Positions 48,087 through 55,705 of a DNA stretch of 64,000 nt are shown piece by piece. How positions within the stretch are numbered: position 1 is the first letter of the stretch; each line of letters starts with the position of its first letter. The notes under the pieces were generated by a model. It saw only the letters and a list, made by a program, of their open reading frames with translations. It was not told where the DNA came from and did not search any database. The DNA comes from Escherichia coli (lineage in GTDB: Bacteria > Pseudomonadota > Gammaproteobacteria > Enterobacterales > Enterobacteriaceae), in the NCBI RefSeq assembly GCF_041248615.1, contig NZ_CP158426.1. One strand, written 5' to 3'. The translations under genes and the position numbers were made by a program.

Positions 48087-49223
48087 ATGGATCTATTGAT
48101 TGTTTTAACTTACGTGGCGCTGGCGTGGGCGGTCTTTAAAATCTTCCGCATTCCGGTGAATCAGTGGACGCTGGCGACGGCGGCGCTGGGAGGCGTGTTT
48201 CTGGTGAGTGGTTTGATTTTGTTGATGAACTACAACCACCCTTACACTTTTACCGCGCAAAAGGCAGTGATAGCGATCCCCATCACGCCACAGGTGACGG
48301 GAATTGTTACTGAAGTCACTGACAAGAATAATCAGCTTATTCAAAAGGGCGAGGTGCTTTTTAAACTCGACCCGGTTCGTTACCAGGCGCGAGTTGACAG
48401 ACTTCAGGCTGACCTGATGACGGCGACGCATAATATAAAGACGCTGCGCGCGCAGCTCTCTGAAGCGCAGGCCAACACCACCCAGGTTTCAGCGGAGCGC
48501 GACCGTCTGTTTAAAAATTATCAACGTTATCTGAAAGGCAGCCAGGCGGCGGTGAATCCGTTCTCGGAACGTGACATCGACGATGCGCGGCAAAACTTCC
48601 TCGCGCAGGACGCGCTGGTGAAAGGCTCGGTGGCGGAGCAGGCGCAGATCCAGAGCCAGCTCGACAGTATGGTTAACGGCGAGCAATCGCAGATTGTGAG
48701 CTTAAGAGCGCAACTTACTGAAGCAAAATATAACCTTGAGCAGACTGTCATTCGCGCGCCGAGCAATGGCTACGTTACTCAGGTACTGATCCGCCCAGGT
48801 ACATACGCAGCTGCCTTGCCGTTGCGTCCGGTGATGGTTTTCATCCCCGAGCAAAAACGGCAAATTGTCGCCCAATTTCGGCAAAACTCGCTGTTACGTC
48901 TGAAACCCGGCGATGATGCGGAAGTGGTGTTTAACGCGCTACCTGGGCAGGTGTTCCACGGCAAACTGACTAGCATTTTACCTGTCGTGCCAGGCGGTTC
49001 TTATCAGGCGCAGGGGGTATTGCAATCATTAACGGTCGTGCCCGGCACGGACGGTGTGCTGGGAACCATTGAACTGGACCCTAACGATGATATCGATGCC
49101 TTACCCGACGGCATCTACGCCCAGGTGGCGGTTTACTCCGACCATTTCAGCCATGTTTCGGTGATGCGGAAAGTGCTGCTAAGAATGACCAGCTGGATGC
49201 ATTATCTTTATTTGGATCATTGA
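48087..49223 (+). CDS. yibH: HlyD-family membrane fusion-like protein YibH
   Basis: 378 aa; N-terminal TM helix then coiled-coil and barrel region. Confidence 0.9.
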
Positions 49224-49680
49224 GGGGGGCGGGGGAGATTATGGAACTTTGCTCCCTGCAAGGACTAATTATTTTTGCATATTATTTCATCGGCTGTGAT
49301 GATTTTTCGTTAATATCCATTATGTTAAGAAGTTCGGGATGAGTGTGAACTCATTGGATTTTTTATCCGTCTTGATCTGCCGAAGGATCAGACTATACAT
49401 TGTCGAGATCGCAATGATGATATGAGTTGTTCCTCTGCCACGGCTCTAATCAAAAAAGAGCAGGAGTGCTTTTCCATCTATTGCGATGATGGCTTTATTA
49501 TCTGAAGGATGACAGTCACATTTAAAAATATTTAATTTATAGATCACAATGTAGGTTCATGTAATATATGTATACAACTATTTTTCTCTTCACTTTTAAT
49601 TATCGTATTCATTATAACACTAAGTTAAAAAAACTCCTGGAGAGTGAGTTATTAATATGTTTTTAAATATAATTAAGTTA

Positions 49681-50202
49681 TTATTCATCGATGCATTTTA
49701 TAGAATCATCAATGGCTACAATAGTACTATTAACTCTCCAATTTATATTTTTATTATCATTGCAAATATTAACTGAATCTATATCAATGATTTTTTTATT
49801 TTTATCTTTTATTTTGTTTACAGTTTCAATGCAATCAGCGACAAGTTGGTGTGGATTTAGATTCTTCAGATATGGTCTTATGATCTTTCCCTTGCTTAAT
49901 AAATAGCATGTATAGGATTCGGAAAGTCCAGCATCTATTTTGTACATCATTATTCTAGATAAGGATGTGAGAAATGCCTTGTTATCATTAGCAGCCATAT
50001 ATGCCAGTCCGAGTTCAGCCTCTGCGGCTTTACATGAAAAATAGCTAAGTGAACACGCTTTTCGTCCCTCTTGGGTACTGGCTGATATTAGTGCCCATAA
50101 TATTGCCTTGTCTGCCAAATCCAACTCTCTCTGAAATTGGTTTACAGTAACTGCATTCGCAGAAATAGAGAAGAAAAGCACAATTGTTAATAACCTTGTC
50201 AT
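49681..50202 (-). CDS. Hypothetical secreted Cys-rich protein (candidate periplasmic immunity protein of the orphan module)
   Basis: 173 aa; signal peptide MTRLLTIVLFFSISANA; seven Cys; AT-rich; starts 4 nt after the stop of the upstream small ORF. Confidence 0.5.
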   Translation of the reverse strand: MTRLLTIVLFFSISANAVTVNQFQRELDLADKAILWALISASTQEGRKACSLSYFSCKAAEAELGLAYMAANDNKAFLTSLSRIMMYKIDAGLSESYTCYLLSKGKIIRPYLKNLNPHQLVADCIETVNKIKDKNKKIIDIDSVNICNDNKNINWRVNSTIVAIDDSIKCIDE

Positions 50203-50206
50203 ATTT

Positions 50207-50482
50207 CTAGTCCGTCACTGTTAATGTGCTATCTGGCTCTGAAAATATTAGCTCATTTAATTTTTGCATGTCATTAGATGAACCAGTTATACAACCCTCG
50301 GAACAGAATCGAGGTCCTAAAGATGGACCAAAAGCGTTTAAACAACTATGTGTTAAAAATCCATCACGATTATACGTTTCTGTATTTGCTGACGGTACTA
50401 AACGTATACCATTAGGTTTTCTATTGGTTGCTCCAGGACTGTTAAGCAAGCCTCGTCCGGTTTGCTTCATTGAGTTCTCCAC
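50207..50482 (-). CDS. Hypothetical small protein (candidate orphan toxin tip)
   Basis: 91 aa; internal Met MKQTGRG (start at 50470) has GGAG SD 7 nt upstream; preceded by a vestigial rhs start ATGAGCGGAAAACCAGCGG...TAA. Confidence 0.4.
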   Translation of the reverse strand: MENSMKQTGRGLLNSPGATNRKPNGIRLVPSANTETYNRDGFLTHSCLNAFGPSLGPRFCSEGCITGSSNDMQKLNELIFSEPDSTLTVTD

Positions 50483-50570
50483 TTTAGACTATTGGACTAT
50501 CTTTCAACATGGCATCGCCTTAGTATACCGCTGGTTTTCCGCTCATTGTTAATTTTCTCTTTCGTTCATT

Positions 50571-50981
50571 TCACTTAATTTTCAGTTTTTTCCAAAAGTC
50601 AATATTCCCTTCTAATAAAATTTTTTCTATGGAATCTTCATTAATTTTATTATTAGAGCATATGACATTATCTTGAACGCCATATGACACCACCCCGTTT
50701 TTATCAATATAATATCTGTCTTTACCATCAATAATATAAATCCTAACATTTTTATCATCAAAATGGTAACACTCATTACTAGACCTGTTCAGTAACATTA
50801 ATAACTTCTCACGATTTATCTGTAATAATTTTTGTGCACCATCTTTTATTGCAAAATTTTCAATTTTACTTTTAGTGACAGGGGAATATGTTTGGATGCG
50901 AAAAGGCATCCTATAATGGAAAACATCAGCTATACAGCAAGATGAAAAAAATACGGAAATAAAATACAGACATACTTTCAT
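50571..50981 (-). CDS. Candidate Rhs immunity protein
   Basis: 136 aa; AGGAG SD 5 nt upstream; 57 bp downstream of the rhs stop; AT-rich; hydrophobic N-terminus MKVCLYFISVFFSSCC. Confidence 0.55.
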   Translation of the reverse strand: MKVCLYFISVFFSSCCIADVFHYRMPFRIQTYSPVTKSKIENFAIKDGAQKLLQINREKLLMLLNRSSNECYHFDDKNVRIYIIDGKDRYYIDKNGVVSYGVQDNVICSNNKINEDSIEKILLEGNIDFWKKLKIK

Positions 50982-51038
50982 ACCATCTCCTAAACTGGTG
51001 ATATATTAAAAACATACCCAAAAGCAATATAAAAATGT

Positions 51039-53124
51039 TTAATATTTCATTCTTGCTGGCAAGCCCAACTCTTTACGAAATGGGTTTTCATATTTATCAA
51101 CATTAGCCATCGAGTCAGTTCCATCGTCTTTCATTCCCTTTGCATGCCCCATTTCATGCGCAAGAACCACACTCAACAGAGTGGGTTTCATGGCACATGC
51201 TTTGTTTTTTCCTTGATATACACATGAGCTATGGTCGTTATCAATATCAATGTAAAAACTATATTCAGTATCATCGTAGCATGTTTGGTTTATGCCTTTT
51301 CTTAATCCTCTAAATATATATTCATGCTCTGATGACTCTAATTCTTCTGTTATTTTATGTCCAAACTTTGTTTCTGCTACAGCTTTATATGCTTCTTTTA
51401 AAGTTTTTTGTGTACTTTCATCTCCCTGAAAAGACACTTTTAACCCTAATGGATCGAAACCAGATACCGGATTCAACGGATACTGATAAAAATTCCATCC
51501 CCCCTTAAGCCCAATCGGATCCTGAGTGATATACCGCCCCTGCAGCGGGTCATAATAGCGGTGGCGGTTGTAATAGAGGCCGGACTCCTCATCATACTGC
51601 TGACCCGGCAGGCGGATGAGCTGCTGCAGCTGGTGCGGGTTCTCTTCATTCAGCAGGTTGCCCCATTCATCGTATTCTGCGCACCATTCTGTTGCCCCTT
51701 CCGTGCTGACAAGCGCCAGCGGCAGGCCGCGATGGTCGCAGTGGTACAGGTGGATTTTTCGCGCCGGCGTGTACACCGGGTCCATCTGGTTTTGTATCTG
51801 CTCCACCGTCAGGCCGCACGATGCCAGCCAGCGGCGGCTTTCCTCACTCACCCGGTCAGCCAGGATTTCACTTTCCAGCCGGTCGAGCATCTGCACCAGC
51901 ACCGGCGGGAACACCACACTGCCACCGTCTTCACCGCCGGACTGCTGAAGCGCATCCGCCAGGCTGCGGCGCTGCGTTTTCGCCAGCTCACCGGTGGCAG
52001 TTTCAACTCTGATGAGTGGCGTGAAGCTCCCCGGCTGATAAACCGTCTGGATGCGGGTTCTGTCGTTCTGTATTGTGGTCAGCCGGTCGCCGTCCCAGCC
52101 GTACCAGGTCACTTCCGGTTTCCGTGACAGCGACATCCAGCCCGTCAGGTCCCGTTCACGCCGCCACACCCGTTTTGCCACCCTGCGGCCCAGCGGGTCG
52201 TAAAGATAGCGACTTTCGACCAGCGGCTCTGCATATTGTGTCCGCGTGTAGTGCACCAGCCGGTGCCGGCTGTCGTAATGGTACCGGTGAGTCCGCTCAT
52301 CATCCGTGCGGATAACCCCTTCCGGGATGAGGTCGGTTTTCTCCGTCAGCCTGCCGTGACGGTCATACCGGTAAAGATAGTGCGCGTCACGGGCGATACG
52401 GTTATCCGGCCACATGCTGAGGGTGCTGTCCGGGTGCAGCTCCGGGTCGGGCAGGCGGTTACCTGCCGGGTCCGTGGCATACGGGATGCGGATATCCAGA
52501 TTCGCTGCGGTGGTGTGGACGCCGGTCAGCCTGCCGGTGTCGCTGTAGCTGTAACTCCGGGTCTGGCGCGGGCTGCTGATGCGGATGAGTTCGCCGTTGT
52601 CGTTCCAGGTGTAATCGCGGTCATACTGCAGGCTGTTCAGGTGCTGGCTCTGTAACTGCCCGGCAGAGGTGTAAGCGGTGGTGAGTTCATAACGGCCGAA
52701 GCTGCGCAGCGTTTCCCGGTGCAGGCGGTCGCGGGTGTACTCCACCAGCGGTGTGTCGCCGAGTTTCATGCCTGACAGCCAGCCGCTGCCGTAGGTCAGC
52801 CATTCCACGGCGGGCAGGCTGTCCGGTATACAGCGGTTCGCCAGTCCCTGCGCGTTGTACGCATGTCTGGTTTCATGCTGCCAGAGCAGTGCTTCCGTCT
52901 GCGGGTGATGCACCGTCTGGCGCTCACCGGTCAGGCGGCCTTTCTCATCATACCCGTAATGCACCGTCACCCGGTGGCCTTCGCTGAGATGGCTGATTTG
53001 TGTCAGCCAGCCGCGTTCGTCGTACCGCCACTGTTCTGCGGTTTCACCATTCACCGTTCGCTGTGTGATGCGGTCTGCTTCGTCATAGTGCCAGTGGGTG
53101 ACCAGCCCCTCATCCTCGCTGCGG
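51039..53124 (-). pseudogene. rhsA: rhs C-terminal fragment: YD-repeat core, DPxGL boundary, HExxH-containing C-terminal toxin domain
   Basis: YD repeats; ...[11 protein letters not shown]...[17 protein letters not shown]...; the ORF-track start [14 protein letters not shown] is encoded by the IS21 end. Confidence 0.85.
53119..53124. repeat. Target-site duplication CTGCGG (IS21-family insertion), copy 1
   Basis: Identical hexamer at 55706-55711 immediately outside the opposite IS end. Confidence 0.6.
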
Positions 53125-53209
53125 TGCGTATTACCGTGAAGGAGATCGGTGAGTAACATCGATGGAGATCGGTTCGTGTCACTTTCACAGAACCGTTTTT
53201 AAATTACCT

Positions 53210-53959
53210 TCACTGATCTCCTTCGGTCAACGGAGATTGTATTTTCCGCATTGATTCTCCTTTAAGTTCGATCTTGATACTGCCATGAACCAGTCGATCT
53301 AGGATGGCATCCGCATGTGTGGAGTCTCCGATCATTTTGTACCAGTTTTCCACCGGCAACTGGCTCACTACGATGATTGAGCCTCGTTGGTACATCAGAT
53401 CCACTATTTCCAGCAGGTCGCTACGCTGTTCTGATGAGAGAGGTTCCAGCCCCCAGTCATCCAGAAGCAGCAGATCGCTATTATTCAGCCTGGTCAAAAG
53501 TTTGCTGTATCTTCCATCAGCATGCCCCTGATAGCACTGTTCCATCAGCGCTTTAAGGCGATAATAGTAGACCTTGTATCCCTGTCGGCAGGCATTATGA
53601 CCAAGTGCACATGCCAGGAACGTTTTACCGCTGCCGGTGGCCCCGGTCAGTAAAATATTTTGTTTCAGGGTTAACCAGTTTCCCTGACTGAGTGAACGGA
53701 TGAGGGCCCTGTCCAGCCCTCTATTGTTACGATAATCCAGCTTTGATAACTCAGCATTAAGTCTGAACCGTGCATGTTTGATCAGACGCTCTGCCTTCCT
53801 GTTTTCACGGCAGGTTAGTTCTTCTGCTGTCAGTAATGACAGGCGTTCTTCGAAGCCCAGCTCCTGGTATGTGCCCGGCTGAGCAAGTTGCTTTTTAAGC
53901 GCATCACGGAAGCCGGTGAGTTTAAGTGCGGTCAGTTGTTCGTAAAGATGATTCATCAT
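53210..53959 (-). CDS. istB: IS21-family helper ATPase IstB
   Basis: 249 aa; Walker A GATGSGKT. Confidence 0.9.
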   Translation of the reverse strand: MMNHLYEQLTALKLTGFRDALKKQLAQPGTYQELGFEERLSLLTAEELTCRENRKAERLIKHARFRLNAELSKLDYRNNRGLDRALIRSLSQGNWLTLKQNILLTGATGSGKTFLACALGHNACRQGYKVYYYRLKALMEQCYQGHADGRYSKLLTRLNNSDLLLLDDWGLEPLSSEQRSDLLEIVDLMYQRGSIIVVSQLPVENWYKMIGDSTHADAILDRLVHGSIKIELKGESMRKIQSPLTEGDQ

Positions 53960-53970
53960 TGGATCCCGTA

Positions 53971-55512
53971 TCAGTGGTAATACTCACTGCCGCGTACGTT
54001 TTCGTGTTCCATCGTGGATAACAGATCTGGTTTTGGATCCTGAACAGGTTGTTTATCCAGACCTTTTTCCAGGATCGATTTAATACCTGACAGACGCCAT
54101 ACCTTTGTTTTCAGAGCTCTTGCACATGCTGCATTAAGTCTGGCTTTACTGTATTTTTTATGAAGGTTCAGGAGTCCAAGGCAGAAGCGATAGCTTTGTT
54201 CCGGATGTGGACGAGAGTTCAGTATATGAAGCACATAACTATGAGTTTCACTGCCTATGTGCCCCGCCCATTCCAGAAGACGCTCTGGCGTCCAGGTGGC
54301 ATGCTGTCGATGAGCTTCAGGCATGTGCTCGTTGCGGGTACTGTAGCCATAAGTACGCTTGCGCGGGTGCACAGCAACCTCCTGCCCCTGATTGAAGAGT
54401 CTTACCAGTTCTCCGGAGATCCATGCTTCCAGTTGCTGGCCTAACAGCGAACATGGAACCGAGTAGTAATGTTTGTCGATTTCCACGTGGTAATCGGCAT
54501 GAACTCTGACTTTCTTCACCAGGGTGTAACTGTAACTGGCTTCAGGAAGAGGCTTCAGTGCGGGTTTATCAAGCTGGATGAAGAGTTCTGCACGTGAATA
54601 ACCCAACTTCTGCATTATTTTGTTATTCAGTCTTTCCAGCAACTCCCGAATGCGCTGATTAAGCGATGCAAGGCTGTAGAAGATCTCATGCCTGATTCGG
54701 GCCATGATCCAGCGTTCAACAACCTGAACGCCAACTTCAGCTTTGGCTTTATCTTTCGGTTTACGTGGCCGCGCAGGCAAAACTGCGACATTATAATGCT
54801 CAAGCATCTGCTGGTAGGTAGGGTTAACGTCAGGATCATACTTACATGCCCTGGATGTGGCGCTTTTCAGATTGTCCGGAACAACAAGTTCAGGAACGCC
54901 ACCCAACCACTGGAAGCAGCGAACATGACTCATCACCCAGTCTTCAAGCTGCTGAGACCAGGTGGCCTCTGCCCATGTGTAACTTGATGCCCCGAGAACA
55001 GCTACGATGACCTGAGCAGTTCTTATTTCTCCGGTCTCAGGGTCGGTAACGCCAACGGTAGGTCCACAGTAATCAACGAAAAGTTTTTCGCCAGCTTTAT
55101 GTACCTGACGCATTGATGGTGAAGTGGTTTTGAGCCATTCACGGTACATCCGGCAGTAATGGTTATAGCTGTAAAAACCGCCTGGATTACGCTCACAGTA
55201 TTCTTCCCAGAGTAGCTGCAGCGTCACGCATTTATTACGCAGTTCCCGGTGTACTGTAGCCCAGTCAGGCAGAGAGTGCTTCTTCATCTTAACCTGGGTC
55301 TGAAGGAACGCATGTTTTAGTTTTGTATCATCCCATCCTGTAGGTAAGGGCCACTGCTTTATGCCAAGTTGAGCCGCCCGATTAGCATATCTGGATACAA
55401 CGGAAGGGGAGATTGCAAGACTACGACCAATTTGTCGATGGCTGAGTCCAACACCGTATTTAAGCCTAAGAATTTCTTTAAGTTTTCTCATAGAAATTGG
55501 AACTGTTGGCAT
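53971..55512 (-). CDS. istA: IS21-family transposase IstA
   Basis: 513 aa; N-terminal HTH and DDE integrase core. Confidence 0.9.
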   Translation of the reverse strand: MPTVPISMRKLKEILRLKYGVGLSHRQIGRSLAISPSVVSRYANRAAQLGIKQWPLPTGWDDTKLKHAFLQTQVKMKKHSLPDWATVHRELRNKCVTLQLLWEEYCERNPGGFYSYNHYCRMYREWLKTTSPSMRQVHKAGEKLFVDYCGPTVGVTDPETGEIRTAQVIVAVLGASSYTWAEATWSQQLEDWVMSHVRCFQWLGGVPELVVPDNLKSATSRACKYDPDVNPTYQQMLEHYNVAVLPARPRKPKDKAKAEVGVQVVERWIMARIRHEIFYSLASLNQRIRELLERLNNKIMQKLGYSRAELFIQLDKPALKPLPEASYSYTLVKKVRVHADYHVEIDKHYYSVPCSLLGQQLEAWISGELVRLFNQGQEVAVHPRKRTYGYSTRNEHMPEAHRQHATWTPERLLEWAGHIGSETHSYVLHILNSRPHPEQSYRFCLGLLNLHKKYSKARLNAACARALKTKVWRLSGIKSILEKGLDKQPVQDPKPDLLSTMEHENVRGSEYYH

Positions 55513-55705
55513 AGGTATCCTTTACCGGAATGGCAAAAGATACAGATCAACACACCTGTGAAGTTCCAATAACATTGATGGAGATCACTGAATAACAAAA
55601 TGAGTCAAAAGTGATCTCCATCGATGTTATTCAGCGATCTGTTCAAATGTTATTACCCGATCTCGATGGAAGTTATTGAGTGATCTCCTTTCATGAAAAT
55701 ACGCA

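Follow-up and report, generated by a model that had tools for sequence, protein, structure and literature searches.

Short open reading frames downstream of Escherichia coli yibH are very probably accidental antisense frames in a transposase relic at the RhsA island border

We report that the short open reading frames (ORFs) that directly follow yibH in the window, i.e. the whole 64,000-nucleotide stretch of E. coli DNA analysed here, are very probably non-coding and the product of accident, lying antisense to a transposase relic that forms the edge of the RhsA island. The DNA beneath the ORFs is, by its similarities, a heavily decayed and internally deleted element of the ISAs1 family (ISEc1, H-repeat) lying on the minus strand. 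The relic as such is already known: K-12 annotations list it as the pseudogene yibU. The ancestral transposase frame is better preserved in the window allele than in K-12; together with a longer version of the relic in Escherichia sp. MOD1-EC7003, this allows the steps of decay to be ordered. The gap between yibH and the Imm57-family immunity gene is accounted for as the margin of the RhsA island, derived from an H-repeat and since decayed, and a false small-protein candidate is removed, which in itself matters little.

Methods

ORFs starting with ATG were counted on the plus strand of 49224-49680 and in 2000 shuffles of the same stretch that preserve its dinucleotide composition. The numbers of genomes assigned to each allele are based on identity bands of short queries, while nine E. 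coli alleles were read base by base. P276M was left out as an allele witness because its assembly contains numerous frameshifts throughout the locus. Species-representative genomes were scanned with a 21-mer from ORF2. Nucleotide and protein similarities were searched for with blastn and tblastn, peptides were compared with Pfam and NCBIfam, and local alignments to ISEc1 were compared with those of 300 shuffles.

Results and discussion

The ORFs and their number relative to chance

The features of the region are listed in Table 1. The yibH stop codon (TGA, 49221-49223) is directly followed by the G-rich run GGGGGGCGGGGGAG (49224-49237), the ATG of ORF1 starts at the 18th base past the stop, and a GGAG motif is located 3 nt 5' of this ATG. 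The preliminary description of this DNA had noted a 33-codon ORF that starts 18 nt after the yibH stop with a G-rich Shine-Dalgarno sequence and, in an ATGA overlap at its stop codon, the start of a second ORF of 28 codons. Both statements agree with the sequence, where the ORF1/ORF2 as well as the ORF2/ORF3 junctions read as ATGA overlaps.

Table 1 Features of the yibH-Imm57 gap and its neighbours (positions in the window)
Feature	Position	Strand	Details and basis
yibH, HlyD-family protein, 378 aa	48087-49223	+	ORF list; RefSeq annotation of a near-identical genome
G-run of 5 between yibH stop and IS terminus	49224-49228		sequence; IS end inferred from the ISEc1 divergence point
3' end of ISEc1/H-repeat relic: last ~9 codons, TAA stop, ~12 nt right terminus	49266-49229	-	local alignment
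ORF1	49241-49342	+	33 aa; ATG 49241, TGA 49340-49342; antisense to relic
Internal-deletion junction, transposase residues ~180-368 missing	49267-49287 (21 nt)		without similarity to ISEc1
Internal transposase fragment, YdcC residues 96-172	49288-49519	-	blastn, tblastn, Pfam/NCBIfam; yibU (b4652) counterpart
ORF2	49339-49425	+	28 aa; ATG 49339; wholly antisense inside the yibU counterpart
ORF3	49422-49505	+	27 aa; codon-aligned antisense frame of the relic; absent from the preliminary description
AT-rich spacer, relic to Imm57 stop	49520-49680 (161 nt)		without detectable IS similarity
Fourth ORF of at least 27 aa	49568-49666	+	ORF count compared with shuffles
Imm57-family immunity gene, intact, last gene of the RhsA island	49681-50202	-	Pfam Imm57 E 1.4e-44; RefSeq
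136-aa ORF	50571-50981	-	minus-strand block
Rhs core gene	from 51039	-	minus-strand block

The stretch 49224-49680 is AT-rich (34% G+C), and a plus-strand ORF of at least 33 aa was present in 52% of the shuffles, the mean longest ORF being 33.4 aa. At least three ORFs of at least 27 aa were found in 5.5% of the shuffles (P = 0.055); four such ORFs are present in the actual sequence, which represents a mild excess on one strand. This excess is expected from the antisense strand of a former coding sequence, given that the 1137 nt of the intact ISEc1 transposase gene (ydcC) are equally rich when read in antisense, where 17 stretches of 25 codons or more are free of stops. The open antisense frames are an inherited property of the transposase sequence.

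A transposase relic on the opposite strand

In blastn searches of E. coli genomes, 49224-49680 matched the orthologous locus and further places, with a median of five places per genome in all. Among the secondary matches listed, all are in genes annotated as ISAs1-like ISEc1 transposase, e.g. ydcC (~79% over 49288-49519). The alignment to ydcC extends over 232-234 nt with 79% nucleotide identity (E 4e-46 to 2e-52) and puts the transposase gene on the minus strand of the window. At the protein level (tblastn), YdcC residues 96-160 align in one frame with 49517-49323 (-), at 57% identity (E 3e-20) and with a single in-frame TAG at 49448-49446 (-). Residues 156-179 run on in two other frames, since the relic has lost 1 nt after 49307 and another after 49335. 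The stitched relic peptide of 78 residues scores 25 bits against Pfam DDE_Tnp_1 (cut-off 23) and 64.6 bits (E 8e-18) against the NCBIfam ISAs1 transposase, where only 78 residues being left accounts for a score under the whole-protein cut-off of 70.

The second piece of the relic, at 49266-49229, is colinear with the main fragment and on the same strand. It encodes VLAGSKVP*, compared with SVLAGSGLS* at the C-terminus of YdcC, followed by TCTCCCCCG. Its local alignment to ISEc1 scores 18, a value reached by none of the 300 shuffles, the best of which scored 17. Two intact ISEc1 copies (L007 and L017) are identical to each other up to TAATCTTGCCCTG and divergent beyond; on the basis of this divergence point the right terminus of the IS was placed at TAATCTTGCCCTG, and the relic matches 10 of its 13 terminal bases. 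Hence, nucleotide similarity, a protein and profile match in a consistent frame, and terminal sequence at the expected place were all found for an ISAs1-family relic.

Compared with ISEc1, ~290 of ~1290 nt survive, and residues 1-95 and about 180-368 are absent. Judged from what is left, the relic cannot encode a transposase. An active insertion sequence was considered and rejected: only residues 96-172 and ~370-378 are left, with one in-frame stop, two frameshifts and no left end. Local alignment to ISEc1 did not find the left end of the IS next to the relic, and the spacer at 49520-49680 was rejected as a candidate for it, the score of its alignment being reached by 93 of 300 shuffles (not significant). 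Similarity to Rhs core ends, toxins or immunity genes was not found in 49224-49680, which matched ISAs1 transposase genes only, and PGAP has nothing Rhs-related annotated under this stretch.

Relation to yibU and to other H-repeats

The K-12 pseudogene yibU (b4652, MG1655 3769948-3770146) occupies this position too: it is separated from the yibH stop by 97 nt and shares the strand of the Rhs genes. It maps to ~49320-49517 (-) of the window with 93% identity, and its translation is transposase-like and broken by stops. The window allele differs in being without the K-12-type 1-nt insertion, which is why residues 96-160 stay in one frame, broken by only one stop. The MG1655 record of yibU gives no product; EcoGene calls yibU an H-repeat-associated pseudogene, and nothing on yibU as an E. 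coli pseudogene was found in the literature searched. The suggestion in the preliminary description that the ORFs might be decayed remnants of K-12 orphan genes at this position is accordingly correct for the DNA, which corresponds to a pseudogene, and incorrect for the ORFs, which run antisense to yibU and do not follow its reading frame.

Like the ISEc1/H-repeat of the ISAs1 family that carries ydcC in RhsE, the relic is located at the distal end of an Rhs element and on the rhs strand, and H-repeats are associated with regions downstream of rhs genes (PMC3032704).

Origin of the ORFs

When the ORFs are read against ISEc1, their signals coincide with parts of the element. The GGGGGAG that resembles a Shine-Dalgarno sequence for ORF1 is the IS terminus read on the other strand (CTCCCCC, from CTTGCCC). 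The transposase stop codon, likewise read in complement, overlaps with the ORF1 ATG (TTATG here; ISEc1 has TTACG). The ATG of ORF2 is ATA in intact ISEc1 (GGGATAGGTG, compared with GGGATGAGTG here).

A decayed ISAs1-family H-repeat makes up most of 49229-49519, at the distal edge of the RhsA island, and we propose that the plus-strand ORFs arose by accident on the antisense strand of the dead transposase gene, the ORF2 ATG being born by mutation of ATA. The ORFs would then be without coding function and subject to neutral drift. Read-through from yibIH may carry transcription passively into them as a 3' tail, there being no convincing terminator before them. Some translation of ORF1 in strains with the window-type allele is also possible, in view of the GGAG and of there being no strong terminator after yibH.

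Alleles in E. coli

The stretch with the ORFs is present in 3688 of 5426 complete E. coli genomes, and ~1640 have the yibH end only. Two main alleles, ~7% apart, and mosaics of them were observed; over the yibH-proximal 77 nt the sequence is K-12-type in 3450 genomes and window-type in 321, such that ~91% of the carriers are K-12-type. In window-type alleles (the window, ECONIH1 and EM03-18-08) ORF1 is intact, ORF2 is open and ORF3 is in the frame seen in the window. The K-12-type alleles (MG1655, NEB5-alpha, strain C, O157 86-24, 98193 and CP61) have a TAA at codon 7 of ORF1, an open ORF2 and a frameshifted ORF3, and the mosaics (DSM 103246 and ETEC L7) share the ORF1 stop and the ORF3 frameshift with ORF2 open in its window-type sequence. 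ORF1 is reduced to MELCSL* (six codons) in 8/8 sampled non-window-type alleles and also in MOD1-EC7003. The frameshift in ORF3, after codon 5, is a 1-nt insertion that is the same in K-12-type and mosaic alleles. Set against ISEc1, the window allele retains the older state at the sites that distinguish ORF1 and ORF3, and the changes in the K-12 type are derived.

The preliminary description had named a lack of conservation of the reading frames in related genomes as grounds for refutation. This applies to ORF1 and ORF3, whose frames are not conserved, while ORF2 is open in E. coli.

Both mosaics have window-type sequence in the middle of the gap, flanked on either side by K-12-type sequence. 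Recombination has therefore broken the sequence within the relic, at the Rhs island edge, as would fit an exchange of modules at the ends of such islands.

A longer relic in Escherichia sp. MOD1-EC7003

The scan with the ORF2 21-mer gave a single locus, in the cryptic-clade Escherichia sp. MOD1-EC7003. Here the relic adjoins yibH, is 90% identical to the window over 49224-49520, and runs on past 49520, where the IS similarity in E. coli stops, with transposase residues 95 to 14 (76% identity to YdcC, one stop, one frameshift). The longer relic confirms that a fuller H-repeat copy was the ancestor of this stretch and that its N-terminal part has since been lost in the E. coli lineage. In MOD1-EC7003 a 2-nt deletion removes the stop of ORF2 and fuses it to the ORF3 frame, with the first 26 codons readable.

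The same locus shows two further features. The end of a second ISEc1 copy, 99% intact, is present beside the longer H-repeat relic (L017 1-1490), and an ORF with an N-acetylmuramidase domain (231 aa, E 2e-46) and an unassigned 149-aa ORF are found where E. coli has the Imm57 module.

Possible coding function

The main alternative to accidental frames is that ORF2, alone or with ORF1 in window-type strains, is a recently born small protein made from a yibIH read-through mRNA. ORF2 is the only frame that is open in every sampled E. coli allele, its ATG being kept in 9/9; the ATGA overlaps have the geometry of translational coupling, and no convincing terminator separates yibH from the ORFs. Against this, ORF2 has no conserved Shine-Dalgarno sequence (upstream is AAGAAGTTCGGG in the window and AATAAGTTCTGG in K-12), and ORF1, the partner needed for coupling, has only six codons in ~91% of the carriers. 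Moreover, the ORF2 stop is lost in MOD1-EC7003, as described above.

The changes in ORF2 point the same way. The K-12-type and window peptides differ at 3 of 28 residues (N4L, I13F and I17M) and by two synonymous changes, corresponding to 6 of 87 nt (four in the three non-synonymous codons and two synonymous), which is too few for a formal test. The divergence of ORF2, ~7%, is the same as that of the surrounding pseudogene; the identity between window and K-12-type alleles is 93.5% for the relic, compared with 98.8% for yibH and 92.5% for Imm57. The change in ORF2 thus looks neutral, with no sign of constraint. Its persistence is uninformative, since with six substitutions staying open is a likely neutral outcome.

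Searches for relatives were negative as well. The ORF1-ORF3 peptides have no match in Pfam or NCBIfam, none of seven exact peptides from both strands occurs in a collection of 15 billion proteins, and PGAP has nothing annotated in the yibH-Imm57 gap of any sampled genome. The supplement of the Stringer et al. preprint, a searchable list of K-12 small ORFs from ribosome profiling, has no entry for K-12 37700xx-37702xx, yibH or yibU. The validated E. coli small proteins YibX and YibX-S resemble the present ORFs in being short, in some cases antisense or overlapping, and in being named 'yib'; they differ in having start-codon ribosome peaks and tagged products and in lying antisense to waaL, whereas ORF1-ORF3 are located elsewhere and their frames are not conserved. 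The mention of 'yibH' in the smORFer paper likewise concerns ORFs antisense to waaL and not the yibH-Imm57 gap.

Taken together, we consider a small protein from ORF2, with or without ORF1, highly unlikely, and the narrower proposal that ORF2 (MSV[N/L]SLDFLSVL[I/F]CRR[I/M]..., 28 aa) was born de novo as a small protein antisense to the dead transposase fragment and is expressed from the yibIH 3' tail most improbable. The small hydrophobic protein put forward in the preliminary description is not borne out, with ORF1 cut to six codons in most carriers, ORF2 neutral-looking and family matches absent.

Possible RNA function

The region could also act as RNA, i.e. as terminator or 3'UTR of yibIH or as a small RNA, with the ORFs being irrelevant. 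In a pattern scan, 49247-49263 was reported as a hairpin of terminator type with a T-rich run after it, and the G-run at 49224-49234 can pair with 49247-49257. The hairpin, however, has only six pairs, including one G-T, and its tail ACTAATTATT is interrupted; the z-score of the fold relative to shuffles is -0.82 for the window and -0.13 for K-12, and the terminator scan gave two sites where 0.9 are expected. An intrinsic terminator of yibIH at this position was therefore rejected, the stem being weak and the fold no better than shuffles in either allele. An Rfam scan of 47000-52000 with E up to 1 gave no family here, the only match being a chance one to a trypanosome snoRNA elsewhere. Furthermore, the sequence is an IS terminus by descent, and Rhs-less strains are entirely without the region. 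An RNA role is, in our judgement, barely credible.

That ORF1-ORF3 are pieces of one frameshifted plus-strand gene of ~88 codons, as their head-to-tail arrangement through ATGA overlaps (49241-49505) might suggest if the junctions were frameshift sites, is extremely unlikely: the only homology is to the minus-strand transposase, the peptides lack Pfam and NCBIfam matches, no intact plus-strand homologue of ~88 aa was found, and, as intact ISEc1, read in antisense, already has the ORF2/ORF3 ATGA and is one mutation away (ATAG) from the ORF1/ORF2 junction, the junctions are IS features and not frameshift scars.

The edge of the RhsA island and its neighbours

The gene order around the relic is mtlA(-), yibI(+), yibH(+), a minus-strand block, yibF(+), selA and selB. 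In the Rhs-less strain SF-088, yibH and yibF are separated by 70 nt; its similarity to the window ends one base past the yibH stop and resumes 37 nt before the yibF start. This boundary places the ORFs at the very edge of the RhsA island, and the yibH stop marks the last conserved chromosomal base before it.

SF-088 has ~33 nt, GACTTGTATCACCTGTGTTTTGCGCGAGCCTGA (L005 5075-5107), between yibH and the conserved yibF leader that are absent from the window (49224/59396). The island of ~10.2 kb thus replaces these nucleotides and is not a simple insertion.

Imm57 is frameshifted in K-12 (yibV region), strain C, O157:H7 86-24 and others and intact in window-type strains; its intact form is linked to the rarer allele of the relic beside it. 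Between the 136-aa ORF and Imm57, a 91-aa ORF (50207-50482, -) has a weak match to the Tlde1 domain (E 1e-3, below cut-off) and is probably a decayed orphan toxin tip paired with Imm57. The counterpart region in K-12 is only 74% identical, and its annotation is that of an Rhs fragment interrupted by a stop.

Several other insertion sequences were observed in and near the island. Relative to the otherwise 99.5%-identical strain CFSAN061763, the window carries an IS21-family element of ~2.58 kb (53125-55705) inside the Rhs core gene, such that its main rhs gene is disrupted. The element encodes IstA (53971-55512, -), with rve and Mu-transposase C-terminal domains, and IstB (53210-53959, -; E 2e-67). 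Two further, independent insertions are found at the island edge in other strains: in CP61_Sichuan, IS1A is inserted 270 nt into the relic and the Imm57 side is lost, and in O78 strain 3 the IS5-like ISKpn26 truncates the 3' end of yibH.
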